Positions 22,844 through 47,399 are shown, counted from the first letter of the stretch. The stretch: 64,000 bases of DNA from Rhodospirillales bacterium (GCA_027315365.1 DAHUYF010000153.1:516-64515), one strand, 5' to 3'. The notes: generated from the sequence alone by a model not told the origin. Program-made: numbers and translations.

Positions 22844-23761
22844 ATGACCGATGTGAGACGCGCCATCGCGCGGCCGATGCTGTGGGGACTGGTCCTGATC
22901 CTCGCCGGCTGCTCGGACTGGACGTACGATCCGCCGATGCGCGGCAACGTTTTCCTGGCGCCCTACAATCTTGGGCAGCTGGGCGTGGCCGTGCCGACGA
23001 AGCCCACGACCTTCCCCCAGGCGCTGGCCTCCGACTACGACAGTTTCGCCAAGACGCTTGAGTATGACATCAAGGACTGGGCCGACGCCGATTATTTCGC
23101 CCGCAAGGGGTTGGCTGCGGCCAACGGCCAAGTCGTGCCGCCGGAACGCAACAGCAACTGGGCGATCCCGCTCGAAGTGCCCGAGAAATTCCGCACCCAG
23201 CTTGCCGAGGGCCGCGAGCGGCTGCTGAAGGCGCTCGACGCCGGCGGGCGTGACCGGCTGCCGCTCGTCGCCGCGCGCGCCCAGGTCAGCTACGATTGCT
23301 GGGTCGAACGCATGGAGGACGATTGGAGAAGCGCGGCCGACGGCCCCTGCCACAACCAGTTCCTGACGGTGCTGGCACAGCTCGAAGGCCATCTCCAGCC
23401 GGCGGCGCAGCCGGCGGTGGCGCCCGAACCGTCGCGCGAGTATCGCGTCTATTTCGAGTTCGACCGGGCCGGCCTGCTGCCGGAGGCGCAGCAGATCCTG
23501 CAAGGCGTGACGGCGCTCGCCAAGCAGGAGCCGGGCTTGCATGTGGTGCTGGTGGGCAAGGCCGACCGCACCGGCAGCGACAGCTACAACATGCGGCTCT
23601 CCAGGGAACGCGCCGACCGGGTGCGCGATGCGCTGGTGCAGATGGGCGTCGCGGCCAACCGCATCGAGACGCGCTGGGTCGGCGAGCGCGAACCGCCGGT
23701 GCCGACCCCGCCCGGCATGCGCGAGCCCAGGAACCGCGTCGTCGAGATCAACCTACAGTAG
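22844..23761 (+). CDS. OmpA-family lipoprotein (peptidoglycan-associated C-terminal domain)
   Basis: Lipobox LILAGC after MTDVRRAIARPMLWGLV. C-terminal OmpA-like domain (YRVYFEFDRAGL...GKADRTGSDSYNMRLSRERADRV...NRVVEI). The track ORF from 22091 is a run-on. Confidence 0.85.
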   Translation: MTDVRRAIARPMLWGLVLILAGCSDWTYDPPMRGNVFLAPYNLGQLGVAVPTKPTTFPQALASDYDSFAKTLEYDIKDWADADYFARKGLAAANGQVVPPERNSNWAIPLEVPEKFRTQLAEGRERLLKALDAGGRDRLPLVAARAQVSYDCWVERMEDDWRSAADGPCHNQFLTVLAQLEGHLQPAAQPAVAPEPSREYRVYFEFDRAGLLPEAQQILQGVTALAKQEPGLHVVLVGKADRTGSDSYNMRLSRERADRVRDALVQMGVAANRIETRWVGEREPPVPTPPGMREPRNRVVEINLQ

Positions 23762-26753: not shown

Positions 26754-26778
26754 GGAACCGATGAACCCGCGGGGCGTT
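26754..26778 (+). promoter_or_regulatory. EcfG-type general-stress promoter, exact GGAAC-N16-CGTT
   Basis: GGAAC 26754-26758, 16-nt spacer, CGTT 26775-26778, ending 48 nt before ATG 26827. Cross-checked against the translation of track ORF 26725..27054 (..EGEPMNPRGVN..). Confidence 0.6.
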
Positions 26779-26826
26779 AACCCGGCGGTTACGGTTGGCC
26801 GGATAAACATTAACAAAGAGGGGTTT

Positions 26827-27054
26827 ATGAAAAGCTTAAGCCTTTACGCCGCCGGGCCGCCACCGATCCGCACGATCGCCATCGACGGCAGGACCTTCGA
26901 GCTGACCGTCCGCGAGCAGGCGGCGGGCGATTGGCACTGGCTGATCACCGCGCCGGGGCAGATCGTGCTCTCCGGCGCCGCTCCGAGCGAGACGCAGGCG
27001 GTGGACTCCGCCTGCCGCACCGGCGAGGCGCTGGCGCGACTGGCCGCCGCCTGA
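26827..27054 (+). CDS. Small hypothetical protein (75 aa), weakly DUF1508/YegP-like
   Basis: AAGAGGGG Shine-Dalgarno before the ATG; high GC3. The segment FELTVREQAAGDWHWLITAPGQIVLSGAAPSETQAVDSACRTGEAL is reminiscent of a single YegP-type repeat (low confidence). Confidence 0.55.
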   Translation: MKSLSLYAAGPPPIRTIAIDGRTFELTVREQAAGDWHWLITAPGQIVLSGAAPSETQAVDSACRTGEALARLAAA

Positions 27055-27153
27055 AACCGCCCCCAAGGCGACCGAAGACGGACAACAGCGACTAAGAATG
27101 GACGGCAGGCAAGGGCCGCCGCGCGCTGCGCCGGCTGCCCTTCGCTCATGCGC

Positions 27154-27948
27154 TCAGGCGGTTCCCGCTTCGCCGCCCTTTTCCGCCTCGCCGGCCTCGC
27201 TGGCCGCTTCCTTCGCGGCATCGATGGTGCGCTCGGCGACGTGCTTGGCACGCGCCACCGCCTCGCCGCCGAGATCGGCCGCGCGATGGCGCAGTTCCGC
27301 ACCGGCCGAGCCGATCCAGCGCTCCTCGGCGGCGCCTCTGGGCAGCAGGAACGCCACCGCCGCACCGGCCAGCAGCCCCAGCACGCCCAGCGCGATCGGA
27401 TAATCCATCATCAACGCGCCCATGCTCCGGCGTGGGCGGGTCAAGCGATCGGCCGCCTGTTCGGCCAGCGCGCTCGCCTGCTGCCAGGCGGTTTCCGCAC
27501 CCTGCTTCGCCTGGCCGGCAACGTCGCTCACCGCCCGCTGCGCCCGGTCCATCGCGTCGCCCGCCTTTTCGCGCGCATGGGCATAGCCGGCGAGATCGGT
27601 GGGATAGCGCTTGGCCGCCTCATGCGCCGCCTCGCCCGGGCGCCCCCGCGTGCTTGCCGCAAAGGCCACCCAGCCGATGCCCATCCCGATCAGCGCCAGC
27701 GGTACCGGATGGCGGCGCAGGGTCTCGCCGAAGCCGCCGCCGGATCCTTCCATCGTGTCTTTCAGCATGTCGAAGCCCCTTTCCAACAGTTCTTGCGGTG
27801 CCAGCCGGCGCTCCAGCTGAGCCAGGATCGCGCCGAGCTCGGCCCGCGTCGTCTCGATCTCCGCCGCGATGCGCTCCGGCGACTGGCCGGCGCCTTCGCG
27901 ATCGTCGCGCGCGACCGGCGCCAGCTCCGACGGCATGTCGGCGCTCAT
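27154..27948 (-). CDS. DUF3618 domain-containing membrane protein
   Basis: 264 aa. N-terminal SPERIAAEIETTRAELGAILAQLERRL is typical of DUF3618 as I recall it. Two TM segments (VPLALIGMGIGWVAFAA and YPIALGVLGLLAGAAVAFLL). ATG 27948 overlaps the stop of the upstream gene (ATGA). Confidence 0.7.
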   Translation of the reverse strand: MSADMPSELAPVARDDREGAGQSPERIAAEIETTRAELGAILAQLERRLAPQELLERGFDMLKDTMEGSGGGFGETLRRHPVPLALIGMGIGWVAFAASTRGRPGEAAHEAAKRYPTDLAGYAHAREKAGDAMDRAQRAVSDVAGQAKQGAETAWQQASALAEQAADRLTRPRRSMGALMMDYPIALGVLGLLAGAAVAFLLPRGAAEERWIGSAGAELRHRAADLGGEAVARAKHVAERTIDAAKEAASEAGEAEKGGEAGTA

Positions 27949-28364
27949 CGCACCCGCTCGCGCGCCCAGCGTGCGTCCTCGCGCAGGCTGCGCAGGCTGC
28001 GGCCGGGCAGCAGGTGCCGCGGGCCGAGATCGCGTTTTCCCTTGAGCAGCAGGACGGCGCCGATCGCGGCCGCGACGCCGCCCACCACCAGCGCGGCGGC
28101 CCAATCGGGCAGCACGCGGGCGAGCCCAAGCGTCGCCGCCGCCAGCAGCACCAGGAAGCCGGCATAGAGGATGAGACCGCCAGCGATCATCTCCGCCGCG
28201 CCGGCGCCGAGCTGGCTGAACTTGGCCGCGAGCTCCGCCTTGGCCAGCGCAACCTCCTGCCGGAAGAGCCGCGAGGCCTCGCGCGCCAGCGCCGCGAAGA
28301 GGCCGGCAACGCCGCGGTCCTCCCCCGGCGGCGGCATCACGCCGATATCGTCGCTTCCTACCAC
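27945..28364 (-). CDS. Holin-X family (holin superfamily III-like) small membrane protein
   Basis: 139 aa. FRQEVALAKAELAAKFSQLGAGAA, followed by two TM helices. The family call is from memory. Overlaps the upstream gene by 7 nt; alternative ATG at 28337. Confidence 0.7.
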   Translation of the reverse strand: MVGSDDIGVMPPPGEDRGVAGLFAALAREASRLFRQEVALAKAELAAKFSQLGAGAAEMIAGGLILYAGFLVLLAAATLGLARVLPDWAAALVVGGVAAAIGAVLLLKGKRDLGPRHLLPGRSLRSLREDARWARERVR

Positions 28365-28858
28365 CGGCCCGCTCCCGCGCCGCCAAGCGCTTCATCCGCC
28401 GGATGCAGCCCCTCCTGCCAGACCCCGGCGCCGACGCGCGGCGGCGTCGACGGCGCCGGCGCGGCCAGCAGGCGGCCGGCGACGAAACCGGCCGCCACCG
28501 TGCCGGCGATGAACAGCGCCGGCTGGCGGCGCGCCAGCGCCTCGGCCTCGACAAGGAGGTCGGCGAGCCGCCGCTCGCGCAGCACCGCCGCGACCCGGTC
28601 GAGCTGAGCGGCCGCCTGATCGGCGCAGCGCGAGGCGATCGGGCTCTGCTCGCGTTGCAGCGCATCGGCGGTGCGGCGGAAGGCCAGAGCGAAGCCGTGC
28701 ACGGTCTCGGCCAGCCGCGTCTTCTGCTCGGCGACGAGCGAGGCCGTCGCCTGGCGCATCTCCTCGCCGAGGCGGCGCGCGCCGTGGCGCGCCGTACCGA
28801 GCGCCGCTTCGGCGGCGCGCCTGCCGATCTCCGCCGCGTCCCCGTCCGGCTCCGCCAT
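28358..28858 (-). CDS. Hypothetical coiled-coil protein with a C-terminal TM anchor
   Basis: 166 aa from MAEPDGDAAEIG (ATG 28858). Long Ala/Arg/Glu-rich helical region, then the TM segment PALFIAGTVAAGFVAGRLL. First gene of the three-gene module. Confidence 0.6.
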   Translation of the reverse strand: MAEPDGDAAEIGRRAAEAALGTARHGARRLGEEMRQATASLVAEQKTRLAETVHGFALAFRRTADALQREQSPIASRCADQAAAQLDRVAAVLRERRLADLLVEAEALARRQPALFIAGTVAAGFVAGRLLAAPAPSTPPRVGAGVWQEGLHPADEALGGAGAGRW

Positions 28859-28906
28859 GTCTTGATCTCCCGCCCCAGCGGCGCACCTGCCGCGCGCTGT
28901 CGGAAC

Positions 28907-28932
28907 AACGCCGGCCGGAAAGCCGCGGTTCC
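28907..28932 (-). promoter_or_regulatory. EcfG-type general-stress promoter, exact GGAAC-N17-CGTT
   Basis: On the minus strand: GGAAC (28932-28928), 17-nt spacer, CGTT (28910-28907), ending 48 nt before ATG 28858. Cross-checked against the translation of track ORF 28403..29008 (..CRNNAGRKAAVPP..). Confidence 0.6.
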
Positions 28933-28955
28933 ACCGCACCGCGCGGCGGCGGCCG

Positions 28956-29783
28956 TCAGGGGCGTTCGTCGAGGAAGAGATCGAGGCGCAGCGCCGCGCC
29001 CGGCTTGACCGCGTAGGCGGAAAAGTCGCTGACGCCAGCCTCGCGCAGCACGTCCTCATCAATGAGGAAGCGGCCGGTGAGGCTGCGGGCGTCGCGGGTC
29101 AGCACGCGATGCGCGGCATCGGCCATGATCTCGGGCTTGCGTCCGAGCTCGGGGCTGGCGCCGGGGATGATCTGCAGCGCGGCCGTGGCGATGGTGGTGC
29201 GCGGCCACAGCGCGTTGACCGCGACGCCGTCGGCGCGGAACTCCTCGGCCATGCCGAGGACGCACATCGACATGCCGTATTTGGCGATGGTGTAGGCGAC
29301 ATGATCCTTGAACCAGCGCGGGTTCAGGTTGAGCGGCGGCGAGAGCGTGAGGATGTGCGGGTTGGCCGCGCGCTTGAGATGCGGCAGGCAGGCGCGCGAG
29401 CAGAGATACGTGCCGCGCGTGTTGACCCCCATCATCAGGTCGAAGCGCTTCATCGGCGTCGCCAGCGTGCCGGTGAGGCTGATGGCGGAGGCGTTGTTGA
29501 CCAGGATGTCGATGCCGCCGAAGCGCTCGACCGCCTGCTCGACCGCGGCCAGCACCTGCTCCTCCTCGCGGATGTCGGTCTGCACCGGCAGCGCCTTGCC
29601 GCCGGCGGCCTCGATCTCCTCGACGGCGGTGTAGATCGTGCCGGGCAGCTTGGGATGCGGCTCGACGGTCTTGGCGGCGATCACCACGTTGGCGCCATCG
29701 CGCGCCGCGCGCAGCGCGATCGCCAGTCCGATGCCGCGCGAGCCGCCGGAGATGAAGAGCGTCTTGCCTTTGAGATCGGACAT
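28956..29783 (-). CDS. SDR-family NAD(P)-dependent oxidoreductase (HSDL2-like)
   Basis: TLFISGGSRGIGLA cofactor motif and the catalytic YTIAKYG (YxxxK). Confidence 0.85.
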   Translation of the reverse strand: MSDLKGKTLFISGGSRGIGLAIALRAARDGANVVIAAKTVEPHPKLPGTIYTAVEEIEAAGGKALPVQTDIREEEQVLAAVEQAVERFGGIDILVNNASAISLTGTLATPMKRFDLMMGVNTRGTYLCSRACLPHLKRAANPHILTLSPPLNLNPRWFKDHVAYTIAKYGMSMCVLGMAEEFRADGVAVNALWPRTTIATAALQIIPGASPELGRKPEIMADAAHRVLTRDARSLTGRFLIDEDVLREAGVSDFSAYAVKPGAALRLDLFLDERP

Positions 29784-29811
29784 GCGCGGTCCTCCCTTGG
29801 CTGCCGCGCGG

Positions 29812-31599
29812 TCAGAAAGCCTCCGCTTCGAGCTCCATCAGAGACTTGGCGCCGGCGGCGATGTTGACGAAGAGGGTGTTGGTCTCGGGCAGCACGCGCG
29901 CCATGTAGAAGCGCGCGGTGGCGAGCTTCCCCTTGTAGAACAGCGCCTCGTCGCCGCCGAGACGGCCCAGCGCGATCTCGGCGATGCGCGCCCAGAGATA
30001 GCCCATGGCGACCAGGCCGAAGGCGCGCAGATACTCGCTCGCCGCGGCGCCGGCCTCGTCGGGATCGGCCATGCCCTTCTGCGCCACCAGCGCCGTCACC
30101 TGCTGCAGCCGGCCGAAGGCCTTCATCACCGGCATCACGAACTCCTGCAGCTCGGGCTTCTCCAGCCGCTGGCGCAGCCAGGCATCGACGGGGTGGAAGA
30201 AGCGGCGCAGCAGCCGGCCGTTATGCATCGGCATCTTGCGGCCGACGAGATCGAGCGCCTGGATGCCGTTGGCGCCTTCGTATAGCATGGTGATGCGGCT
30301 GTCGCGCACCAGCTGCTCCATCCCCCATTCGCGGATGTAGCCGTGGCCGCCGAAGATCTGCACGCCGAGATTGGTCGCGGCGAAGGCGTTGTCGGTGAGC
30401 ATCGCCTTGATGATCGGCGTCATCAGGCCGATGAAATCATCCGCCTCCTCGCGCGCCGCGGGATCGGGATCGCGCTCGGCGCGGTCGAGCGCGAGCGAGA
30501 CCCAGGCGGCGAGCGCGCGCGCACCCTCGGTATAGGCCTTCATGGTGAGCAGCATGCGCCGCACGTCGGGATGGACGATGATGGGATCGGCGGGCTTGTC
30601 GGGGAACTTGTCGCCCGCGAGCGCGCGGCCCTGCAGCCGGTCCTGCGCGTATTGCCGCGCCGTCTGATAAGCGGTCTCGCCCAGCGCCAGCCCCTGCAGC
30701 CCGACGCCGAGCCGGGCCGCGTTCATCATCGTGAACATGGCGCGCATGCCCTTGTGGGCCTCGCCGAGGAGATAGCCCTCGGCTTCCTCGAAATTGATGA
30801 CGCAGGTGGCCGACGCCTTGATGCCCATCTTGTGCTCGATCGAGCCGCAACGCACGCCGTTGCGCGGGCCGAGGCCGCCGTCGTCCTTCACCAGGAATTT
30901 CGGCACGATGAACAGGCTGATGCCGCGGATGCCCGGCGGACCGCCGACGATGCGCGCCAGCACGAGATGCACGATGTTGTCGGTGAGATCGTGCTCGCCG
31001 GCCGAAATGAAGATCTTGGTGCCGGTGATCTTGTAAACGCCGTCCGTGCCGGCCGGCTCGGCGCGGGTGCGGATCTGGCCGAGATCGGTGCCGCATTGCG
31101 GCTCGGTCAGGCACATCGTGCCGCTCCAGCTGCCGTCGACCAGACGGGGCAGGAATTTCCGCTTCTGCGCCGCCGATCCGTGATGCCAGATGGCGCGATA
31201 GGCGCCGTTGGAGAGGCCGGGATACATGCCGAAGGACATGTTTGCCGAGGACACCATCTCCTCGACGAGGAACTGCAAGGTGTGCGGCAGCCCTTGCCCG
31301 CCATACTCGGGATCGCAGACCAGCGCCGTCCAGCCGCCCTGGCGGAAGAGATCGTAGGCCTCCTTGAAGCCCTTGGGCGTGCGCACGACGCCGTTCTCGA
31401 AGGTGCAGCCCTCTTCGTCGCCGCTGCGGTTCAGCGGGAAGAGCACCTCCTCGCAGAGCTTGGCGCCCTCCTCGAGCACCTGCTCGAACACGTCGGGCGT
31501 GGCATCCTCGTAGCCCGGGAGCTTGGCGAGTTCGCCGACGTCGAACAGCTCCTGCAAGAGGAAGCGATACTCGCGCAGCGGCGCCTTGTAGGTGGTCAT
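29812..31599 (-). CDS. Long-form acyl-CoA dehydrogenase
   Basis: 595 aa. ACAD core (CLTEPQCGTDL, FGGHGYIREWGMEQLVRDSRI) plus a C-terminal extension domain. Confidence 0.9.
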   Translation of the reverse strand: MTTYKAPLREYRFLLQELFDVGELAKLPGYEDATPDVFEQVLEEGAKLCEEVLFPLNRSGDEEGCTFENGVVRTPKGFKEAYDLFRQGGWTALVCDPEYGGQGLPHTLQFLVEEMVSSANMSFGMYPGLSNGAYRAIWHHGSAAQKRKFLPRLVDGSWSGTMCLTEPQCGTDLGQIRTRAEPAGTDGVYKITGTKIFISAGEHDLTDNIVHLVLARIVGGPPGIRGISLFIVPKFLVKDDGGLGPRNGVRCGSIEHKMGIKASATCVINFEEAEGYLLGEAHKGMRAMFTMMNAARLGVGLQGLALGETAYQTARQYAQDRLQGRALAGDKFPDKPADPIIVHPDVRRMLLTMKAYTEGARALAAWVSLALDRAERDPDPAAREEADDFIGLMTPIIKAMLTDNAFAATNLGVQIFGGHGYIREWGMEQLVRDSRITMLYEGANGIQALDLVGRKMPMHNGRLLRRFFHPVDAWLRQRLEKPELQEFVMPVMKAFGRLQQVTALVAQKGMADPDEAGAAASEYLRAFGLVAMGYLWARIAEIALGRLGGDEALFYKGKLATARFYMARVLPETNTLFVNIAAGAKSLMELEAEAF

Positions 31600-31609
31600 G
31601 GGCTTCCTC

Positions 31610-33934
31610 TCAGTTCCGCAACGGCTTGCCGGTCTCGAGCATGTGTTCGATGCGCGCCAGCGTCCTGGGCTCGCGGATCAGCGACTGGAACGCACGGCGC
31701 TCCAGCGCCAGCAGCTGATCCTCGCTGGTCTCGAGCGTCATGTCGGTGTCGCCGCCGCTCAGCACCTCGGCGAGCCTCTCGGCGACCACTGCGTCATAGG
31801 CGGTGGCCTTGCCTTGATTGACGAGATCGGTGACGCCGAGCTTCAGCGCGGCGGCACCGGTCGGTCCCGGCAGGTTGATCGGCTGCGGCTGCGGCGGCTG
31901 GTAGCCCGCGGCGAGCGCCAGCGCCTTGGTCTTGGCGTCGGCCAGCAGCCGGTCGCGATTCATGGTGATGCCGTCGCCTTCGCGCAGCATCAGCGTGTCG
32001 CGCGCCTCGGGCGCCGAGCGCGACACCTTGGCGAGCGCGATCGTCTCGAAGGCCTGCAGCAGCGGCGGCATCGGGCCGCCCGGACGCTTCTTGTTGAGCG
32101 TGTGGCGCGTCACCAGCTCCTTGCAACCGCCCCAGCCAGGCACCAGGCCGACACCGGTCTCGACCAGGCCGATATAGCTCTCGGCATGGGCCTGCACCGC
32201 GGCCGAATGCAGCAGGATCTCGCAGCCGCCGCCGAGCGCCATGCCGGAGGGCGCGCTGACCACCGGGAACGGTGCGTATTTGAGGTTCTTGTAGGCGTTC
32301 TGCCCGGCCGTCTCGCCCTCCTCGATGAACGGCCACAGCGCTACATTGGCGGCGAAGAGGGCGAGGCCGACATTGGCGCCGACCGAGAAATTCTCCGCCT
32401 CGTTGTAGATCACCATCGCCTTGAAGGCGCCGGCGCTCTTCTTCACGGTGTCGAGGCCCTTGCCCAGCATGCCCATGATCTCGGTATCGAGCGCGTTCAT
32501 CTTGCTGTGGAACTCGAGGCAGAGCACGCCGTCGCCGACATCCCAGAGGCTGGCCGAGCCGTTGCGCGCCAGCGGCTTTGATTTGCGCTTGATGTCGGCG
32601 AGCAGCAGCACGCCCGGCCGACGTTTCACCGGCGCGTACTTGCCGTCGCGGCCGAGATAGTCGAGCCGTCCGTCGGCGGTGCGATAGAAGGATTTCCCGG
32701 CCGCCTGCTGTAGCAGCGGCGGCACGGCGATCTTCTCCGCCGCGAGCAGCGCGATGACGGCATCGGCGCCGATCCGATCGATCAGCTCGAAGGGCCCGTA
32801 TTTCCAGGTGTAGCCCCAGCGCATCGCCTCGTCGACGGCGACGACGTCGTCGGCGATCTCGGGCACCAGCGCCGCGGCATAGGCGAGCGTCAGGCCGAGC
32901 ACGCGGCGCGCATACTGCCCGCCGCGATCCTCGTGGCGCAGCAGCGCCTCGGGCTTGCGCTCGGCGGTGCTGGCGAGCTGCGGCTTGGCCAGCGGCCGGT
33001 ACTCGCCGGTGGCGAGGTCGATGGCCTCGCGCTGGCGGCCCGACGCGCTGCGCGTCATGCGGTAGAAGCCGCCCTTGCCCTTGCGGCCGGTGTAGCCCTC
33101 GGCGATCATCTTGGCGAGCAGCGGCCGGTCCTGGTAGATGCGGATGTAGGGATCGTCCTTGGCCAGGCTGCGCTGCATGCTCGCCGCCACCTGCGGCGTC
33201 AGATCGATGCCGACGAGATCGAGCAGACCGAAGATGCCGGTGCGCGGCATGCCGAAGGGTCGGCCCATGACGGCGTCGGCCTCCTCGACGCTGAGGCCGA
33301 GATCGAAGGCCGCCTGCAGCGCCGACTGTATCCACATGCCGCCGATGCGGTTGGCGATGAAGCCGGGCGTGTCCTTGGCGTGGATCACGCCCTTGCCGAG
33401 GCGCACGTCGCAGAATTCCTCGATCGCCTGCACCGCGTCGGGGCGCGTCTTCGGCCCGCAGACGATCTCCAGGAGGCGCATATAGCGCGGCGGGTTGAAG
33501 AAATGGGTGATCAGGAAGTCCTGCTCGAAGCTCGCCGGCATGCCGGCGACGAGATCCCGCAGCGGAATGGTCGAGGTGTTGGAGGAGACAATCGAGCCGG
33601 GCTTGCGCGCCTTCTCGATCTTCGCGTAGGTCGCGTGCTTGACCTCGAGTTTCTCCAGCACCACCTCGACGATCCAGTCGCAGTCGGCGAGCAGACCGAG
33701 ATGGTCCTCGAGGTTGCCCGGCGTGATGCGGCGCGCGAAATCGCGATGCATCAGCGGCGCGGGATCGGTCTTGAGCAGGCGCTCGATCGCCTGCTCGGCG
33801 ACGGTGTTGCGGTTCTTGGCGCCGGGCGGGACGATGTCCAGCAGCAGGACGGGAAGCCCGGCATTGGCGACATGGGCGGCGATGCCGCCGCCCATCACGC
33901 CGGAGCCGATGACGGCGACTTTGCTGATCGGCAT
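31610..33934 (-). CDS. 3-hydroxyacyl-CoA dehydrogenase / enoyl-CoA hydratase fusion protein (FadB-like, HAD domain N-terminal)
   Basis: N-terminal NAD-binding motif VAVIGSGVMGGGIA. C-terminal crotonase fold (FSVGANV...GGGCEILLH). The domain order is reversed relative to E. coli FadB. Confidence 0.9.
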   Translation of the reverse strand: MPISKVAVIGSGVMGGGIAAHVANAGLPVLLLDIVPPGAKNRNTVAEQAIERLLKTDPAPLMHRDFARRITPGNLEDHLGLLADCDWIVEVVLEKLEVKHATYAKIEKARKPGSIVSSNTSTIPLRDLVAGMPASFEQDFLITHFFNPPRYMRLLEIVCGPKTRPDAVQAIEEFCDVRLGKGVIHAKDTPGFIANRIGGMWIQSALQAAFDLGLSVEEADAVMGRPFGMPRTGIFGLLDLVGIDLTPQVAASMQRSLAKDDPYIRIYQDRPLLAKMIAEGYTGRKGKGGFYRMTRSASGRQREAIDLATGEYRPLAKPQLASTAERKPEALLRHEDRGGQYARRVLGLTLAYAAALVPEIADDVVAVDEAMRWGYTWKYGPFELIDRIGADAVIALLAAEKIAVPPLLQQAAGKSFYRTADGRLDYLGRDGKYAPVKRRPGVLLLADIKRKSKPLARNGSASLWDVGDGVLCLEFHSKMNALDTEIMGMLGKGLDTVKKSAGAFKAMVIYNEAENFSVGANVGLALFAANVALWPFIEEGETAGQNAYKNLKYAPFPVVSAPSGMALGGGCEILLHSAAVQAHAESYIGLVETGVGLVPGWGGCKELVTRHTLNKKRPGGPMPPLLQAFETIALAKVSRSAPEARDTLMLREGDGITMNRDRLLADAKTKALALAAGYQPPQPQPINLPGPTGAAALKLGVTDLVNQGKATAYDAVVAERLAEVLSGGDTDMTLETSEDQLLALERRAFQSLIREPRTLARIEHMLETGKPLRN

Positions 33935-33946
33935 GGCGGCCTCCGC

Positions 33947-35083
33947 TCAGGCGCGTTCGAGGATGGTGGCGATGCCCTGGCCGCCGCCGATGCATTGCGT
34001 GGCAAGCGCGTAGCGCTTGCCTTCGCGCGCCAGCAGCGCCGCCGCCTTGCCGGTGATGCGGGCGCCGGTGGCACCCAAGGGATGCCCTATGGCGATGCCG
34101 CCGCCATCGAGATTGGCCTTGACCTCGTCGATGCCGAGCTCGCGCATGCAGACGATCGCCTGCGAGGCGAAGGCCTCGTTGATCTCGACGATGTCGATAT
34201 CCTTCATCGTCAGCCCGGCGCGCTTCAGCGCCTTCTGCGTCGCCGGCACCGGGCCGATGCCCATGATCTCCGGCGCGCAGCCCGCCACCGCGATGCTCTT
34301 GAGCCGCGCCAGCACCGGCAGCTTGTTGCGCTTGGCGAACTCCTCGGTGGTGACCAGCACCGCGGCGGCGCCGTCGGTGAGCGGCGAGGAGGTGCCGGCG
34401 GTGACGGTACCGTCGGCATCGAAGGCCGGCGCCAGGCTCGACAGCGTCTCCTGCGAGGTGTCGGGGCGGATGCAGCCATCCTGGTCGACGACGCCGTCCT
34501 TGGCCTTGATCGCCACGATCTCATCCTTGAACCTGCCCGCGGCTTGGGCGGCGGCGGCCTTGCGGTGGCTCTTCACCGCGAGCTCCTGCTGATCGGCGCG
34601 CGTCACCTGGTGCTTGCGCGCGACGTTCTCGGCGGTCTGGCCCATCGAGATGTAGGCCTGCGGATACTCCTTGGCGAGACCGGGATGCGGCGAGGGATTG
34701 AAGCCGGTCATCGGCACGCGGGTCATGGATTCGACGCCGGCGCAGACGAAGGCCTCACCGGCATCGAGCTGGATGGCGCCGGCCGCCATGTGGATCGCCT
34801 GCATCGAGGAACCGCAGAAGCGGTTCACCGTGGCGCCGGCGACATTGAGCGGCAGATGCGCGAGAAAGGCCACCATGCGGCCGATATTGAGCCCCTGTTC
34901 GCCTTCCGGCATGGCGCAGCCGACGATGACGTCCTCGATCTCCTTGGGGTCGATCTTGCTGCGCTCGATCAGCGCCGCGATCACCTGGGCCGCAAGCTCG
35001 TCGGGCCGCACCCGGGCGAGGGCGCCTTTCTTGGCAAAATGGAAGGGCGAGCGGGCGAAGCCCGCGATGACGACGTTCTTCAT
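33947..35083 (-). CDS. Acetyl-CoA C-acyltransferase (thiolase)
   Basis: Catalytic Cys context NRFCGSSMQAI. C-terminal motifs GHPLGATG and CIGGGQG. Confidence 0.95.
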   Translation of the reverse strand: MKNVVIAGFARSPFHFAKKGALARVRPDELAAQVIAALIERSKIDPKEIEDVIVGCAMPEGEQGLNIGRMVAFLAHLPLNVAGATVNRFCGSSMQAIHMAAGAIQLDAGEAFVCAGVESMTRVPMTGFNPSPHPGLAKEYPQAYISMGQTAENVARKHQVTRADQQELAVKSHRKAAAAQAAGRFKDEIVAIKAKDGVVDQDGCIRPDTSQETLSSLAPAFDADGTVTAGTSSPLTDGAAAVLVTTEEFAKRNKLPVLARLKSIAVAGCAPEIMGIGPVPATQKALKRAGLTMKDIDIVEINEAFASQAIVCMRELGIDEVKANLDGGGIAIGHPLGATGARITGKAAALLAREGKRYALATQCIGGGQGIATILERA

Positions 35084-35532
35084 GGCGTTCCTTTCCTGCC
35101 GGCGGGGTCCTGCCCGGCTTCCTTCCTGCGAATGCTGTCCTCGATATAGGCGCCGATCGCACGCAGCTCTTCGAGCGTCAGCGCGATCTCCTGCTGTTGG
35201 CGCTCGAGCTCGGCGATGCGAACGCGGCCCTTGATGAGGGTGGCGCGCAACTGCTCGAGATGGTTCCGGTCGACGTCGTAGAGATCGAGCAGCTCGCGGA
35301 TGTCGGCGAGCGCGAAGCCCAGGCGCTTGCCGCGGAGGATGAGCTGCAGCCGCGCCCGGTCGCGCCCGGAATAGACCCGGTTGCCGCCGATGCGGCGCGG
35401 CGCGAGCAGCCCCTGATCCTCGTAGAATCGGATGGCGCGCGGCGACACGCCGACCTCGCCGGCGAGGTCGCCGATCGAATAGAGCCGCGAGGCGGCGCCC
35501 TCGCTGCCGGCCTGGACGGATACGGCGGACAT
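35080..35532 (-). CDS. MerR-family transcriptional regulator (LiuR-like)
   Basis: HTH sequence YSIGDLAGEVGVSPRAIRFYEDQGLL, followed by a coiled-coil dimerisation helix. First gene of the beta-oxidation operon. Alternative ATG at 35556 lies inside the upstream palindrome. Confidence 0.85.
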   Translation of the reverse strand: MSAVSVQAGSEGAASRLYSIGDLAGEVGVSPRAIRFYEDQGLLAPRRIGGNRVYSGRDRARLQLILRGKRLGFALADIRELLDLYDVDRNHLEQLRATLIKGRVRIAELERQQQEIALTLEELRAIGAYIEDSIRRKEAGQDPAGRKGTP

Positions 35533-35536
35533 TGAT

Positions 35537-35582
35537 ATGCCGATAACGTCACCCATATGACGTTAACGTAAGGCATCGGCAT
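35537..35582. promoter_or_regulatory. Nested ACGT-containing inverted repeats (candidate MerR/LiuR operator)
   Basis: TAACGTCA (35544-35551) -N6- TGACGTTA (35558-35565). Overlapping perfect palindrome ACGTTAACGT (35560-35569). Outer arms ATGCCGAT (35537-35544) and ATCGGCAT (35575-35582). Locally AT-rich and immediately upstream of ATG 35532. Confidence 0.45.
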
Positions 35583-35627
35583 GGCGATGTCCAGCCGGAA
35601 ATCGCCACCCTCGGCACCCCTGGGTTC

Positions 35628-36332
35628 TCAGGTTTCCTTGACGTTGCCGCGCCCGATCTCCTCGAGCGCGTCGGCGTTGCGGATGATGATCCAGCCCTCA
35701 TCGAGCTGGAGGATGCCGCGGCGCTGCCACTCGCGCAGGCAGCGATTGACGCTCTCGCGGGTGCCGCCGATCATGGTGCCGAGCTCGCGCTGGGACAGCG
35801 CCAGCTTGGCCTGGGGCGTGCCGGCGGCGATGCGCAGCAGCGCCTTGGCGAGCCGCATCGGCAGGCCGAGAAAGGCGATCTCGCCGATCTGCTGGTCGGT
35901 GCGGCGCAGCCGCTCGCACAGCACCTCGAGCAGCTTGATGGCGACCGCCGGGTGGCGCTCGAGCACGCTCAGCATGTCGCGGCGCTCGAGCACCAGCAGG
36001 TCGCAATTGGTCAGCGCGGTGGCATCGGCGCTGCGCTCCCTGCCGTCGAGCAGCGCCATCTCGCCGAAGACCTCGCCGCCGCCGAGATCGGCGAGCACGA
36101 TCTCCTTGCCGTCGACCGAGGCGGCGGTGATCCGCACCGTGCCCGCCAGCACCGCCATCATGCTCTGCCCGGGCGAGCCGATGCGGAAGATCACCTCGCC
36201 TGCGTCGAAGCGCCGGCGATGCGCGTGCCCCGCCACCAGCCGCAGCGCCGCATCGTCCAGCGCAGCAAACAGCGAGCAGCGCCGCAACAGGCGGCTGGCA
36301 TCGTCGCGCGATCTGTCCGGCGAATTCGGCAA
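35628..36332 (-). CDS. Crp/Fnr-family transcriptional regulator
   Basis: cNMP-binding domain (GEVFGEMALLDGRERSADATA) plus a C-terminal HTH (SQRELGTMIGGTRESVNRCL). Apparent TTG start preceded by GAGGGGG. Confidence 0.85.
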   Translation of the reverse strand: MPNSPDRSRDDASRLLRRCSLFAALDDAALRLVAGHAHRRRFDAGEVIFRIGSPGQSMMAVLAGTVRITAASVDGKEIVLADLGGGEVFGEMALLDGRERSADATALTNCDLLVLERRDMLSVLERHPAVAIKLLEVLCERLRRTDQQIGEIAFLGLPMRLAKALLRIAAGTPQAKLALSQRELGTMIGGTRESVNRCLREWQRRGILQLDEGWIIIRNADALEEIGRGNVKET

Positions 36333-36554
36333 GCGACCCCCTCACCGTATTGTTGCACCCCCGCCGCAACCTCGTCCAGCGCGGCCGCCGCGCCGCCCGG
36401 CGAAACCGGCCCCGTGGCACGGCTACCCCGGCAGCGGCCGGATGCGCTATAGGCTCGGAAGGTCGCGGCGATCCATCAGGCCGCCGCGACGGTCCGGAGA
36501 AATGATGCGCCGGCAGCCGGCGAGCGTCGGGCGCGCAGAACCAGGAAGCGGAGA

Positions 36555-38321
36555 ATGACCGCAGCAGAAGCGAGTGCCGGCATGGCGATGAAGAGCGAAA
36601 CCCGCGACGGCATGCGGATCGACTGGGACGTACCGATCCCGATGGATGACGGTCTGGTGCTGCGCGCCGACGTCTTCCGCCCGATCGCCGACGACCGCTT
36701 CCCGGTGCTGATCACCTATGGCCCCTATGCCAAGGGGCTCTCCTTCCAGGAGGGATATCCCAGTGCCTGGAACCGCATGGCGGCGGAGCATCCCGACGTG
36801 ACCGCCGGGTCGAGCAACAAATACCAGAACTGGGAAGTCGTCGACCCCGAGAAGTGGGTCCCGGACGGGTATGTCTGCGTCCGCGTCGACTCGCGCGGCT
36901 GCGGCCATTCGCCCGGCTACATCGATCATTTCTCGCCGCGAGAGACCAGGGATTTTCACGACTGCATCGAATGGGCCGGCGTGCAGCCCTGGAGCAGCGG
37001 CAAGGTCGGCACCAGCGGCGTATCTTATTACGGCATCAACCAGTGGCACGTCGCCTCGTTGCAGCCGCCGCACCTTGCCGCGATGTGCATCTGGGAAGGT
37101 GCCGCGGATTGGTACCGCGACATGACCCATCACGGCGGCATCCTCAGCACCTTCTGGGCGAACTGGTACGACATGCAGGTCAAGACCGTCCAGTACGGCA
37201 CCGGCGACTGCGGCAAGCGCAGCGCGCTCACCGGCGATCCCGTCTGCGGCCCCGAAAGCCTGTCGCCGGAAGATCTCGCGCGACGTCGTTGCGACTTCGG
37301 CGACGAGATAGCCGCCCATCCGCTCGACGACGCCTATCACAAGGCGCGCTCGGCGGCATGGTCGAAGGTGACGGTGCCGTTTCTGTCGGCGGCGAACTGG
37401 GGCGGCCAGGGCCTGCACCCGCGCGGCAATTTCGAAGGGTTCGTGCGCGCCGCGTCCGAGCACAAATGGCTGGAAGCGCACGGGCTCGAGCATTGGACGC
37501 ATTTCTACACCGATTACGGCGTCGCACTGCAAAAGCGCTTCTTCGGCCATTTCCTCAAGGGCGAGCGGAACGGCTGGGAAAAGCAGCCGCGCGTCCAGCT
37601 GCAAGTGCGACATATCGACCGCTTCGAGACCAGGCTGGAAGACGAGTGGCCGCTCGCACGCACCGATTGGACACGATTCTATCTCGACCCTGCCGAGACG
37701 TCGCTCGCGACGCGCGTTCCCGCAAGCGAGGGCAGCAAGACCTTCGACGCCCTGGGCGAAGGCATCACCTTCCTGTCGACGCCGCTTGCCGCCACGACCG
37801 AGATCACCGGGCCATCGGCACTCAAGCTGTACATCTCCTCCACGACGAGCGACGCCGATATCTTCGCCGTGCTGCGCGTGTTCTCGGCCGATCTCAAAGA
37901 GATCGTCTTCGTCGGGGCGATCGACCCGCATACGCCGATCGGCCAGGGCTGGCTGCGGGCAAGCCACCGCAAGCTCGATGCGGCGATGAGCCGCGACTGG
38001 CGCCCCTATCACAGCCATGACGAGCGCCAGCCGCTAACGCCCGGCGATATCGTCGAACTCCAGATCGAGATCTGGCCGACGAGCATCGTCGTGCCGCCGG
38101 GCTATCGCATTGCGCTGACGATCCGCGGCAAAGACTACGAGTATGGCGGCGGCAGCGGCGGGCGGCTGTCCAATTTCAAGAACGAGCTCAGAGGCTGCGG
38201 GCCGTTCCTGCACGACGATCCGCGCGATCGTCCGCCGGAGATATTCGGCGGCAGAACCACGCTGCATTTCGGCGGCACGCGCCGGCCCTATCTCCTGTTG
38301 CCGGTCATGCCGCCCAAATAG
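36555..38321 (+). CDS. CocE/NonD-family hydrolase (S15 X-Pro dipeptidyl-peptidase fold)
   Basis: 588 aa. RADVFRP...FPVLITYGPY, nucleophile motif GTSGVSYYG, and a C-terminal beta-sandwich domain region. Confidence 0.85.
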   Translation: MTAAEASAGMAMKSETRDGMRIDWDVPIPMDDGLVLRADVFRPIADDRFPVLITYGPYAKGLSFQEGYPSAWNRMAAEHPDVTAGSSNKYQNWEVVDPEKWVPDGYVCVRVDSRGCGHSPGYIDHFSPRETRDFHDCIEWAGVQPWSSGKVGTSGVSYYGINQWHVASLQPPHLAAMCIWEGAADWYRDMTHHGGILSTFWANWYDMQVKTVQYGTGDCGKRSALTGDPVCGPESLSPEDLARRRCDFGDEIAAHPLDDAYHKARSAAWSKVTVPFLSAANWGGQGLHPRGNFEGFVRAASEHKWLEAHGLEHWTHFYTDYGVALQKRFFGHFLKGERNGWEKQPRVQLQVRHIDRFETRLEDEWPLARTDWTRFYLDPAETSLATRVPASEGSKTFDALGEGITFLSTPLAATTEITGPSALKLYISSTTSDADIFAVLRVFSADLKEIVFVGAIDPHTPIGQGWLRASHRKLDAAMSRDWRPYHSHDERQPLTPGDIVELQIEIWPTSIVVPPGYRIALTIRGKDYEYGGGSGGRLSNFKNELRGCGPFLHDDPRDRPPEIFGGRTTLHFGGTRRPYLLLPVMPPK

Positions 38322-38357
38322 GCGGCGTCAGCCCGACCGACGGGCGGCGCGCCCGGA

Positions 38358-40058
38358 TCAAGGCGGCGGCGCGCAGGCGGCGCGGCGCGCCTCTTCCTCG
38401 ATCAGCGCCTTCTTCGATGGCTTGCCGATCAGCGTCTTGGGCAGGCTGTCGCGGAACTCGAACAGCTTCGGCATCTCGATCGGCGACAGCTTGTCCTTGA
38501 GAAAGGCGCGCAGCTCCGTCTCGTCGAGGCTGGCGCCGGCCACCGGCGCGACATAGGCCTTCACCGTCTGGCCGCGATAGGGGTCGGAGACCGAGAGAAC
38601 GATGCATTCGGCGACCTTGGGGTGCTGATAGATCGCCTCCTCGACGTTGCGCGGATAGATCTTGTAGCCGCCGGCGATGATGATGTCCTTGATGCGGTCG
38701 ACGAGGAAGAGATAGCCCTCGTCGTCGAGATAGCCCACGTCGCCGGTGCGCAGCCTTCCCTCGCTCAGCACCTCGGCGGTCGCCTCGGGCTTGCGCCAGT
38801 ATCCCGCCATCACCTGCGGGCCGCGCACCACCACCTCGCCGCGCTCGCCCTGCGGCATCGCGCGCGCGGGGTCCTCGACCGAGACGATCTCGACGATGGT
38901 GCCCGGCACCGGCAATCCGACCGAGCCCGGCTTGTTGACGCCGCGTAGCGGGTTGCAGGCGACCACCGGCGACGTCTCGGAGAGGCCGTAGCCCTCGACC
39001 ACGGTGCATCCGGTCGCCGCCTCGAATTTATGCTTCACCTCGAGCGGCAGCGGCGCGCCGCCGGAAATGCAGGATTTGATCGAGGTGAGGTCGATCCGGG
39101 CGGCGTCGGGATGCGCGTAAATGGCGGTGAAGAGCGTCGGCACGCCGGGCATGGTGGTGGGACGCTTGCGCCGGATGGCGGCGAGCAGCGATTTGATCTC
39201 GAAGCGCGGCAGCAGGACGATCTCCGAGCCGCAGGCGATGCTGAGATTGAGCGCCACGGTCATGGCGAAGACATGGAAGAACGGCAGCACTGCCAGCACG
39301 CGCTCCCGTCCGGGATCCATGTCGGGGAACCAGGCGAGGCATTGGCGCGCATTGGCGACGAGGTTGCGATGGGTCAGCATCGCTCCCTTGGGCACGCCGG
39401 TGGTGCCGCCGGTATATTGCAACACCGCAAGATCGCGCGCCGGCTCGACCGGCACCGCCGCCATCTCGCCGTCATTGGCGATGAGATCGGCGAAGGCGAG
39501 ATGCGCGCCGTCGCGCGGCCACCGAGCGATGTCGGCACGCTTCAGCAGCCGGTAGAGCAGGCTCTTGCCCGTCGGCAGGATGTCGGCCATCGGGCAGAGC
39601 ACGAGCTTGCGGATGCGGGAGTGGTCGAGCAGGGGCGCCAGCAGCGCGTAATGCTCCCTGAGATCGAGCGTCAGCATCACCTCGACGCCGGAATCCTCGA
39701 CCAGATGGCGGATTTCCGGCGGGGCGTAGAGCGGGTTGAAATTCACCACCGTGCCGCCGGCCGCGAGCACCGCGTAATACGCGATGACGTAATAGGGCGA
39801 GTTGGGCAGCATCAGGCCGACGCAGGTGCCCTTGCCGACGCCGAGCGCCGCGAACCCCTTGGCCGCGCGGCGCACCAGTGCGCCCACCTCCGCGTAGGTG
39901 TAGCCCTTGCCGAGGAAGTCCAGGCACGGCCTGTCGCCGAACCGCCGCGCCGCATCGTCGAGCAGGCGGTGCACCGGCTCGTCGGGAATCCCCCCATGCC
40001 AGTCGACCCCCGGCGGATAGGCCTTGAGCCACGGCCAGTTCGCCCCGATCTCCGCCAT
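38358..40058 (-). CDS. Long-chain fatty acid--CoA ligase (AMP-dependent synthetase)
   Basis: AMP-binding motif LQYTGGTTGVPKGAMLTHRN, plus TGDVGYLDDEGYLFLVDRIKD and a C-terminal GKPSKK. Start at MAEIGANWPW (ATG 40058). Confidence 0.9.
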   Translation of the reverse strand: MAEIGANWPWLKAYPPGVDWHGGIPDEPVHRLLDDAARRFGDRPCLDFLGKGYTYAEVGALVRRAAKGFAALGVGKGTCVGLMLPNSPYYVIAYYAVLAAGGTVVNFNPLYAPPEIRHLVEDSGVEVMLTLDLREHYALLAPLLDHSRIRKLVLCPMADILPTGKSLLYRLLKRADIARWPRDGAHLAFADLIANDGEMAAVPVEPARDLAVLQYTGGTTGVPKGAMLTHRNLVANARQCLAWFPDMDPGRERVLAVLPFFHVFAMTVALNLSIACGSEIVLLPRFEIKSLLAAIRRKRPTTMPGVPTLFTAIYAHPDAARIDLTSIKSCISGGAPLPLEVKHKFEAATGCTVVEGYGLSETSPVVACNPLRGVNKPGSVGLPVPGTIVEIVSVEDPARAMPQGERGEVVVRGPQVMAGYWRKPEATAEVLSEGRLRTGDVGYLDDEGYLFLVDRIKDIIIAGGYKIYPRNVEEAIYQHPKVAECIVLSVSDPYRGQTVKAYVAPVAGASLDETELRAFLKDKLSPIEMPKLFEFRDSLPKTLIGKPSKKALIEEEARRAACAPPP

Positions 40059-40183
40059 CGCCCCACACACCCGACCATTGCGCGGGTAGCGAGCCTAGCG
40101 GTTCCCCGCCCCGGCCGGCAATGCCGCCGCGGCGCCACCCGGGTTGCGGCGGCGCCGCGGGCGACGTCGCCGCGCGAGTTCGC

Positions 40184-40411
40184 CTAACGCTTGATCTCCG
40201 GATCTTCTCCGGCGGCATGGCGCTTGCCGACGAGTTCGGCCTCGCGCAGCTTGTCGCCTTCCTTGCCGTCGACCGCGCGCCCGGCCTCCTTGGCCTTTTC
40301 CTCCACCTTGCCGGAGCGTGCGAAATCCTGCTGCGCCTCGTTGAAGCGGCGCGCAGCGGTGCGGTTGCCTTCTCCTTCGTTCTGCTGGGTCCGGTCGTCC
40401 TTCCCGCTCAT
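40184..40411 (-). CDS. Small hydrophilic protein (75 aa), putative general-stress protein
   Basis: MSGKDDRTQQNEGEGNRTAARRFNEAQQDFARSGKVEEKAKEAGRAVDGKEGDKLREAE... Highly charged, no TM segment. GGAGGA Shine-Dalgarno 5 nt before ATG 40411; high GC3. Confidence 0.6.
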   Translation of the reverse strand: MSGKDDRTQQNEGEGNRTAARRFNEAQQDFARSGKVEEKAKEAGRAVDGKEGDKLREAELVGKRHAAGEDPEIKR

Positions 40412-40438
40412 CAATTCCTCCTATCTGCCTCTTGGGCA

Positions 40439-40464
40439 AACAGGGACCTTCTCGGGCCGGTTCC
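40439..40464 (-). promoter_or_regulatory. EcfG-type promoter, GGAAC-N17-TGTT
   Basis: On the minus strand: GGAAC (40464-40460), 17-nt spacer, TGTT (40442-40439), ending 27 nt before ATG 40411. Cross-checked against the translation of track ORF 40121..40528 (..WANRDLLGPVP..). Confidence 0.45.
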
Positions 40465-40490
40465 GATGCCGGCGGCGGCGCGGATCGCGC

Positions 40491-41333
40491 CTAATGCGCG
40501 AGGATCACCGGCAGCATCGCCTCCATGATGATGTGGCGGGTGGCACCGCCGAAGATCATCTGGCGCAGCCGACTCTGGGTATAGGCGCCCTTGACCAGCA
40601 GGTCGGCGCCGATCGCCCTGGCCTCGTCGAGGAAGACCTGGCCCGGGCTGCGGTCGCGCGGCGTGACGTGGCGCGCGAGCGTAGAGATCCCGTGTCGCGT
40701 CAGGCTCTGCGCCAGATCCTCGCCCGACGGACCGGGCGTCATCGCCCCCTCGACACTCACCACCTGCACGCTCTGGGCGCGCTTCAGGAACGGCATGGCG
40801 AAGGCGACGGTGCGCGCCGTCTCGGTGCTGCCGTTCCAGGCGACCAGCACGCGCTCGCCGATCGAGGCAAGCGGCGCCGGCGGCGCCATCAGCACCGGCC
40901 GGCCGCTCTCGAACAGCGCATCCTCGAGCGTCGCCTCGGCGAGCGACGCGAGCTTGGCCGGACGTTCGACGACAATGAGGTCGAAGACCCGGCCCAGCGT
41001 GCCGACCACGGCATTCTGCCGGCCCGGCTCCTCGCGCCATTCCGCGCTCGGGCCGTCGCCGACCGCCGCGTCCATCGACACGCCGTGCTGGCGCATGAAG
41101 GCGGAGAACAGCGCCCGCGCCTGCTCGCGCCGGTCGTGGCCTTCGCGCTCCAGCGTGCGGTCGACCTCGGAGGAAATCGAGAAGCCCATCTCGCCGCCGA
41201 ACACGACGGCGTATTCGGTGGTCAGCGCGTTCAAGCCGGTGATGCGCCCGTTGAAGCGCCGGGCCACCAGCAGCGCCGTGTCGAGCAGAGACGCCGCCGT
41301 GCCGTCGCCGACCACGGCCAACAGGGTCTTCAT
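40491..41333 (-). CDS. Universal stress protein (tandem UspA domains)
   Basis: 280 aa from MKTLLAVVGDG. Two Usp-like halves. The C-terminal half has the nucleotide-binding-like sequence LLVKGAYTQSRLRQMIFGGATRHI. Confidence 0.8.
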   Translation of the reverse strand: MKTLLAVVGDGTAASLLDTALLVARRFNGRITGLNALTTEYAVVFGGEMGFSISSEVDRTLEREGHDRREQARALFSAFMRQHGVSMDAAVGDGPSAEWREEPGRQNAVVGTLGRVFDLIVVERPAKLASLAEATLEDALFESGRPVLMAPPAPLASIGERVLVAWNGSTETARTVAFAMPFLKRAQSVQVVSVEGAMTPGPSGEDLAQSLTRHGISTLARHVTPRDRSPGQVFLDEARAIGADLLVKGAYTQSRLRQMIFGGATRHIIMEAMLPVILAH

Positions 41334-41421
41334 CGCCACCTCGCCTGTTCCCCGCGGCCTGCCGGCCGCGTCGTGTTTTGCCCGACTATACCGCTTGCCG
41401 GGGCGGCGCAAAAGCGGGATG

Positions 41422-41446
41422 GGAACCGCCGGCCGGCGAAGCCGTT
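41422..41446 (+). promoter_or_regulatory. EcfG-type general-stress promoter, exact GGAAC-N16-CGTT
   Basis: GGAAC 41422-41426, 16-nt spacer, CGTT 41443-41446. It ends 30 nt before TTG 41477 (GGAGG Shine-Dalgarno at 41463-41467) and 81 nt before ATG 41528. Cross-checked against the translation of track ORF 41378..42796 (..WEPPAGEAVR..). Confidence 0.6.
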
Positions 41447-42796: not shown

Positions 42797-42821
42797 ATCG
42801 GCATCGACAACGAAGCCCGGC

Positions 42822-44390: not shown

Positions 44391-44477
44391 GGTGAGGGTA
44401 CGCCTGGACACCGCCGGCTGTTCCGGCGGCCGGCGACAGCTCGTCGGCAACGGATCGGGCTGCCGCGCGTTCAGATT

Positions 44478-47374: not shown

Positions 47375-47399
47375 CGAACATATCTTCGCGGAGGACGTT
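47375..47399 (+). promoter_or_regulatory. Near-consensus EcfG-type promoter (CGAAC-N16-CGTT)
   Basis: CGAAC 47375-47379 (preceded by GG) and CGTT 47396-47399, ending 32 nt before the GTG/ATG-class start at 47432. One mismatch in the -35 element. Confidence 0.25.

Follow-up and report, generated by a model that had tools for sequence, protein, structure and literature searches.

A 64,000-nucleotide (nt) stretch of DNA from a Rhodospirillales bacterium (GCA_027315365.1 DAHUYF010000153.1:516-64515; the whole stretch is called the window here) raises the question of which RNA polymerase reads a recurring two-box motif, GGAAC followed after 16 or 17 nt (N16/17) by CGTT, in front of genes that are small or uncharacterised. 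An earlier note on the window, made by eye, had listed three exact and three near matches and had read them as promoters of the alphaproteobacterial general-stress sigma factor. Analysis of the window and of related genomes leads to a similar answer: the sites at 26754 (site 1), 28932 (site 2), 41422 (site 3) and 40464 (site 4), and probably that at 22743 (site 5), are predicted to be promoters read by RNA polymerase carrying EcfG (ECF15; SigT/RpoE2), an extracytoplasmic function (ECF) sigma factor, with a probability of roughly 85%. The window would then contain four well-supported EcfG-type promoters and one probable one.

A pattern search of both strands recovered the three exact matches at 26754-26778 (+), 28932-28907 (−) and 41422-41446 (+), and no more, together with the three near matches at 40464-40439 (−), 22743-22767 (+) and 47375-47399 (+; site 6), all as the earlier note had placed them. 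The G+C content is ~70% along the whole window, which makes raw lists of open reading frames (ORFs) useless, and genes were therefore called with a codon-usage model trained on long ORFs of high G+C at third codon positions; this gave 58 genes, leaving 6.6% of the window intergenic. Chance matches in such GC-rich DNA draw what support they have from dinucleotide shuffles of the whole window, which contained 0.46 exact matches on average (in line with the fewer than one foreseen by the note) and reached three or more in 2 of 100 cases. By contrast, in the 34 gene-oriented upstream regions (4725 nt in total), dinucleotide-preserving shuffles gave an expectation of 0.036 exact matches against the three seen (Poisson P 7e-6), and none of 20000 shuffles reached three. 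The 90 GGAAC/GTTCC pentamers of the window include 75 inside genes, and none of these genic pentamers has CGTT at N16/17, as the note had reported from a partial check. Since the sites are also conserved at orthologous positions in many genomes, the chance explanation is effectively refuted, and the note's judgement that the exact matches are unlikely to be accidental is borne out.

All three exact matches are intergenic and face the next gene, ending 48, 48 and 30 nt ahead of start codons (26827 ATG, 28858 ATG and 41477 TTG, respectively) that have good ribosome-binding sites. The near matches are likewise intergenic and gene-oriented, and end 27 nt (40439), 76 nt (22767; ATG 22844) and 62 nt (47399; GTG 47462) before the starts, so that the placement described earlier holds for all six sites, with distances of 27-76 nt by the called starts in place of the 27-81 nt first given. 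The distance of exactly 48 nt shared by sites 1 and 2 is real, but no meaning is attached to it because the distance from motif to start varies from 34 to 55 nt among orthologues. The two boxes lie 16-17 nt apart at all five promoter sites, with GGAAC and CGTT at the three exact sites, TGTT as the second box at site 4 and GGAAT as the first at site 5. The four strong sites share an extension of the first box to GGAACCG, two bases past the pattern searched. A fifth GGAACCG, at 40105-40101 (−), was left out of the count, since no −10 box follows it at spacings of 16-20 nt.

Comparison with related loci (numbered with an L below) supports the promoter reading. Relatives in synteny, at 60-97% protein identity, bear the label Alphaproteobacteria or Stellaceae, and Stellaceae is also the label on homologues of the proteins of sites 2 and 4; in the NCBI taxonomy this family corresponds to Allostellaceae (order Rhodospirillales, Alphaproteobacteria). 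The host is thus of the class in which EcfG occurs. In 11 related loci (~180 kb), all 22 matches to GGAAC-N16/17-YGTT are intergenic, and 21 of them lie upstream of orthologues of the window targets. The boxes are kept while the spacers diverge and toggle between 16 and 17 nt in length, at site 1 in 7/7 loci, at site 4 in 7/8 and at site 2 in many loci.

Site 1 (P1, 26754..26778, +) consists of a −35 box GGAAC(CG) at 26754-26758, a 16-nt spacer and a −10 box CGTT at 26775-26778, and lies in the divergent gap between a GGDEF gene (start 26736, minus strand) and the gene for a protein of 75 amino acids (aa) and unassigned function (26827..27054, +). No Pfam or NCBIfam family matched this protein, and its 35 homologues are all unnamed. 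The motif is kept in all seven orthologous loci (L001-L004, L173, L174 and L177) with diverged spacers, its conserved islands being GGAACC and G(C/T)GTT; these do not vary among L001-L004, where the remainder of the spacer is freely substituted, and in L177 the target gene has been relocated behind an OmpA gene with its motif kept.

Site 2 (P2, 28907..28932, −; exact) has its −35 box GGAAC(CG) at 28932-28928, a 17-nt spacer and its −10 box CGTT at 28910-28907. It precedes an operon of three overlapping genes (27154..28858, −), which encode a 166-aa helical protein with a transmembrane (TM) segment near its C-terminus (28358-28858), a 139-aa YqjE-family/Holin-X protein (PF07332; 27945-28364) and a DUF3618 protein (27154-27948), and which is followed by a terminator-like hairpin at 27120-27101. 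Both Pfam assignments lie above the gathering threshold (PF07332, 96.9 bits against a cut-off of 28.4; DUF3618, 39 bits against 24.9). Searching with a profile built on the 166-aa protein yielded 77 genome loci, and the motif was sought within 300 nt upstream of each homologue. Of 31 alphaproteobacterial loci, 13 had the exact motif, as against none of 44 others (Fisher P 1.6e-6), and with YGTT allowed the counts became 22/31 and 0/44 (Fisher P 3.9e-12). Among the alphaproteobacterial loci are Stellaceae, Geminicoccaceae, Inquilinaceae, Acetobacteraceae, Hyphomonadaceae and Terricaulis, and among the others Chloroflexota, Acidobacteriota, Gemmatimonadota, Actinomycetota, Deinococcota and beta- and gammaproteobacteria. 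The YqjE-family/DUF3618 operon appears to be an EcfG target throughout the class. In three Rhodospirillaceae/Novispirillum loci (L033, L041 and L062), GCAACTCC-N-GCCGGGCCGTT (GCAAC-N17-CGTT) lies ~70 nt upstream of the homologue; its constant position in all three points to GCAAC as a conserved variant of the −35 box in this lineage. In L001, a 321-nt segment holding the site-2 promoter and the first ~49 codons of its gene is duplicated (7344-7664 and 9806-10126, 94% identity); the copies lie on either side of ~2.1 kb of other DNA and truncate the short-chain dehydrogenase gene next to them. The duplication may be a rearrangement or an assembly artefact.

Site 2 can also be read as an inverted repeat, GGAAC-N21-GTTCC, which would favour an explanation in which the boxes only look like a promoter and belong to something else, for instance the operator of a transcription factor, a structured RNA leader or a repeat. 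The conservation around site 5, which reaches well past the two boxes, would fit the same explanation. However, the GTTCC arm is not conserved, being TTTCC in orthologues, and the inverted repeat was rejected; a Stellaceae-like alignment at site 2 has its conserved islands at GGAACCG and (A/G)CGTT. Free divergence of spacers that are only ever 16 or 17 nt long is the mark of a two-box promoter and not of a structured RNA or a palindromic operator, and every site is correct in orientation and in distance from its start codon. No Rfam family matched anywhere in the window at gathering thresholds, so no known RNA element accounts for the conserved intergenic blocks, and a sigma-70 scan of 22.5-42 kb found no consensus promoter in the four gaps, itself weak negative evidence. 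With conservation limited to the boxes, a one-base tolerance in the spacer and both scans blank, a non-promoter element is, like chance, poorly supported, and we regard it as very improbable.

Site 4 (P4, 40439..40464, −), GGAAC(CG)-N17-TGTT, precedes the gene for a 75-aa highly charged, hydrophilic protein (40184..40411, −), just downstream of a universal-stress-protein gene (41339-40491). CGGAAC and CCTGTTTGC are invariant in five sequences with diverged spacers, and GGAAC-N16/17-TGTT is kept in seven of eight independent loci (L158, L159, L161, L164, L165, L167 and L181), which marks the T as a conserved feature of the −10 box and not a defect. The earlier note had ranked this site among the near matches; on the comparative evidence, its support is equal to that of the exact sites. 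The 75-aa protein has more than 468 close homologues and falls into a family of 599 clusters at 50% identity (E <= 1e-3), mostly of 70-120 aa and including one member with a fused N-terminal DUF2934 domain; no Pfam or NCBIfam model matched the family.

Site 3 (P3, 41422..41446, +), an exact GGAAC(CG)-N16-CGTT, precedes a gene with a TTG start for a DUF4910/DUF2172/HTH_47 protein resembling M28 aminopeptidases (41477..42796, +). Its boxes are kept only in the two closest relatives, L078 (N16) and L158 (N17). The motif was found at none of 79 metagenome DUF4910 homologues (~60% identity, on other contigs), which carry no taxon labels, so that all this result can show is that the gene family does not have the motif as an intrinsic feature. 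On this pattern, site 3 looks like a recent recruitment. In L158 (6241-8849), the DUF4910 gene and a phospholipase D (PLD)/cardiolipin-synthase-like gene overlap at stop and start and are translationally coupled, and hence form one operon behind a site-3-type promoter. In the window, the DUF4910 and cardiolipin-synthase-like genes (whole stretch 41477-48718) are parted by five genes (42822-47292) encoding a GMC oxidoreductase, DoxX, cupin, SMP-30/gluconolactonase and glyoxalase proteins; this block was present in no related locus fetched and may be an insertion. Within the gap of site 3, TATAGT at 41385-41390 (−) forms part of a conserved block, GTTTTnnnCGAyTATAC (+ strand), common to the window, L078 and L158, and probably serves the divergent universal-stress-protein gene (41339-40491) as its sigma-70 −10 box.

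The tie between the motif and a particular regulatory system comes from L075, a locus in a Terricaulis metagenome-assembled genome (CAZZFE010000003.1; Caulobacteraceae, another order), where a full general-stress locus lies beside a site-2-type operon. The locus encodes a HisKA_2 kinase (6268-7974, −), an ECF sigma factor (7976-8542, −), NepR (PF18557; 8535-8807, −) and a divergent PhyR (NF006623, 345 bits; 8951-9733, +), and directly after PhyR come homologues of the three site-2 genes in the same order (9845-11523). An exact GGAAC-N16/17-CGTT stands ahead of nepR, of phyR and of the operon, which ties the motif to the PhyR-NepR-EcfG system. The wider region of L075 (3800-15300) forms a general-stress island, and 10 exact GGAAC-N16/17-CGTT sites fall within 20 kb. 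They stand before nepR-ecfG-kinase, phyR, the YqjE-family operon and the genes for a single-domain response regulator and a Crp-like regulator, as well as before a PRC-barrel-like ORF.

Several findings weigh against the EcfG reading and have to be set beside this evidence. In the 64-kb window, the 50 of 58 genes annotated with Pfam include no sigma factor, NepR, PhyR or HWE/HisKA_2 kinase, the remaining eight being ABC-transporter and fatty-acid-oxidation genes assigned by synteny or BLAST similarity; and tblastn with the L075 PhyR, NepR, EcfG and PhyK as queries, run on the window and on all fetched loci, gave no match beyond L075 itself. An AAC-type −35 box with a CGT-type −10 box is used by many ECF sigma factors (for RpoE of Escherichia coli, the −35 element is GGAACTT), and the motif is in principle not unique to EcfG. 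Among individual sites, the motif of site 4 is missing from L180, one of its eight loci, and that of site 3 from the moderately related L167, and site 5 has a degenerate −35 box in a uniformly conserved region where comparison is weak. Finally, GGAAC was the search key throughout, so that its invariance in the compiled set of 31 sites, GGAACC(G)-N14/15-(C/T)GTT, is partly an artefact of how the sites were collected.

The first two of these points leave room for real promoters read by a different ECF sigma factor, either an EcfG paralogue that has a regulon to itself or a member of an unrelated ECF group of similar GGAAC/CGTT specificity; the promoters would then lie outside PhyR-NepR control. 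AAC-containing −35 boxes such as the GGAACTT of RpoE are common to ECF factors, several EcfG-like paralogues occur in many alphaproteobacteria according to PMC3892343 and PMC4814048, and no regulator gene lies within the window. Set against this are the restriction of the motif at site-2 homologues to Alphaproteobacteria, the identical motif before nepR-ecfG and phyR beside the homologous operon in L075, and exact agreement with the published EcfG consensus, which in PMC3892343 is given for Rhizobium etli EcfG1 as GGAAC-N16-CGTT, in a factor described there as restricted to Alphaproteobacteria. A different ECF factor is accordingly judged unlikely. As the regulator genes lie outside the window, that the factor is EcfG and not a similar ECF sigma factor is something we infer, as we do that the organism itself encodes EcfG, NepR and PhyR and has the sites in use. 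The EcfG reading, which the earlier note had put forward, now draws on enrichment in upstream DNA, box conservation, restriction to Alphaproteobacteria and the Terricaulis locus.

The PhyR-NepR partner switch and the recognition of these boxes by EcfG are established knowledge, and the proposed working of the window sites follows from them. Under stress, phosphorylated PhyR would bind NepR, the anti-sigma factor, and set EcfG free, whose sigma-4 and sigma-2 domains would read the −35 GGAAC(C) and −10 (C/T)GTT boxes 16-17 nt apart, with transcription starting a few nt past the −10 box to give leaders of ~20-70 nt. The genes turned on would be those for the site-1 75-aa protein, the three-gene membrane operon, the 75-aa hydrophilic protein and the DUF4910 aminopeptidase-like protein, and probably that for an OmpA-family protein. 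The sites resemble known EcfG promoters in sharing the R. etli boxes with a 16-17 nt spacer and the placement seen in Sphingomonas melonis Fr1, where motifs are concentrated within 100 bp of the coding sequence (PMC6599016). Variants with TGTT, GCAAC or CGAAC are among the putative EcfG motifs listed for S. melonis ahead of genes that depend on EcfG, and these genes include some for outer-membrane proteins (PMC6599016); the window targets likewise resemble published EcfG regulons, being small hypothetical proteins, envelope proteins and neighbours of a stress-protein gene. The window sites differ in their slightly longer −35 box GGAACCG, in the location of their regulators off this fragment, and in being predicted from sequence alone in an uncultured, Stellaceae-like lineage.

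Site 5 (P5, 22743..22767, +), GGAAT-N16-CGTT with a degenerate −35 box, is a probable EcfG-type promoter before the gene for an OmpA-family (peptidoglycan-binding) protein (22844..23761, +). At the orthologous position, L177 has a canonical GGAAC-N17-TGTT, L002 GGAAT-N17-CGTT and L001 CGTG. The region 22640-22845 is ~90% identical in L001/L002, as against 55-70% for other intergenic regions; as it is conserved as a whole and L001 has CGTG, the L001/L002 comparison discriminates poorly. A 1-nt indel in L001/L002 upstream of 22844 excludes an earlier start, and the region is therefore non-coding. Inside it are an AT-rich block (GATAATTGTTGCAATAATAG) and a GGGGCGGTGCCCC hairpin; it is blank in Rfam, and it may act as a structured leader or else be densely regulatory. 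Site 6 (47375..47399, +), CGAAC-N16-CGTT, is a candidate before a cardiolipin-synthase-like PLD gene (47462-48718). A further candidate is GCAAC-N16-CGTT at 44447..44471 (+), 48 nt before a DoxX-family gene (44520-44999). This intergenic, correctly oriented one-mismatch match had been missed by the scan by eye, which had been offered as possibly not exhaustive. In E. coli, the DoxX gene yqjF adjoins yqjDEK. The description of the targets as uncharacterised stands for the strong sites, whose products match no Pfam or NCBIfam family or DUF-type families only, and fails for the near-match targets, which are OmpA-family and cardiolipin-synthase-like.

Two other intergenic regions of the window drew attention. 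At 54366-54420 (−), two one-mismatch GGAAC-N17 matches lie in a gap downstream of a PIN-domain gene, beside which no antitoxin ORF was called; they face the 3' end of a convergent gene, a position that is not promoter-like. At 9786-10384, a 599-nt gap without a called gene separates isoleucyl-tRNA synthetase and ribF-like genes; it is unusually long for so compact a window, and Rfam is blank there.

The site-2 operon invites comparison with E. coli yqjD-yqjE-yqjK, whose first product belongs to the C-tail-anchored, ribosome-inactivating YqjD family. YqjD, ElaB and YgaM are produced in an RpoS-dependent manner in E. coli, and yqjE- and yqjK-like genes are syntenic with DUF883 genes (bioRxiv 10.1101/2024.08.16.608256). 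In both systems, a small helical TM protein is followed by a PF07332 membrane protein, which is E. coli YqjE's own family (E-values of 3.5e-21 for YqjE and 1e-27 for the window protein), and production would be under the general-stress sigma factor of the respective organism. They differ in the sigma factor, RpoS there and an ECF-type factor for the window operon, in the third gene, DUF3618 and not YqjK, and in the 166-aa protein, which fails the DUF883 models. BLASTP found no pairwise similarity between the window PF07332 protein and E. coli YqjE. Several homologues of the 166-aa protein are named 'ElaB/YqjD/DUF883 family' by the Joint Genome Institute (JGI). Despite this naming, membership in DUF883 (YqjD/ElaB/YgaM) was rejected on Pfam and hhalign results. 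The 166-aa protein gave nothing against Pfam DUF883 or DUF883_C even at E <= 5, whereas E. coli YqjD matches both domains, and hhalign against YqjD aligned 31 columns of the TM region only, with 7.9% probability. The conserved RRQPALFIAGTVAAGFVAGRLL of the 166-aa protein (an RRQP-glycine-rich TM segment) is followed by a tail of ~35 residues and is not the protein end. Given the failed DUF883 models and the different third gene, the operon is described as YqjD/YqjE-like and not as a member of that family. Among the papers searched, none joins DUF883 or YqjD with EcfG, SigT, RpoE2 or PhyR.

A second parallel comes from Actinoplanes sp. SE50/110, in which, according to PMC11205660, two DUF3618/Holin-X clusters are induced by overexpression of sigma-H. 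The parallel lies in adjacent DUF3618 and Holin-X (PF07332) genes, once with a third protein of unassigned function, which respond to an alternative sigma factor; the case concerns another phylum and another sigma-factor family, and its evidence is transcriptomic after overexpression. By analogy, the module may be one case of a bacteria-wide membrane module that has repeatedly been put under the stress sigma factor of its lineage, with yqjDEK of E. coli under RpoS, the Actinoplanes clusters under sigma-H and the window operon under EcfG. The function of the module may, on the same analogy, be akin to YqjD-type membrane tethering and ribosome inactivation. Within Alphaproteobacteria, the three-gene module may be an ancient core member of the EcfG regulon, and some lineages have it physically joined to the phyR/nepR-ecfG locus. 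That all of these proposals hold together, namely a core EcfG module, recurrent control by stress sigma factors, a YqjD-like function and a role of the site-4 75-aa family as an effector, is a tentative idea and on balance doubtful.

The promoters described here are new instances of a well-known class in an unstudied lineage, and the working of EcfG promoters is left unchanged by them. They provide a comparison-backed list of putative direct general-stress targets in Stellaceae, a common soil family that is little studied and represented here by metagenome-assembled genomes only, and they illustrate how a two-box scan joined to comparison of related genomes separates real EcfG sites from look-alikes. 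The main lead is the YqjE-family/DUF3618 operon, with an EcfG-type promoter across several alphaproteobacterial orders and a position beside phyR in Terricaulis; related modules come under RpoS in E. coli and under sigma-H in Actinoplanes. Together, this makes the module a good candidate for functional study, for example in ribosome hibernation or membrane protection under stress. A further lead is provided by the two small protein families of sites 1 and 4, which lack a family model and appear to be under conserved stress-sigma control. If the broader proposal is true, the site-4 75-aa family (~600 clusters at 50% identity) would add a new and conserved effector to the general stress response.

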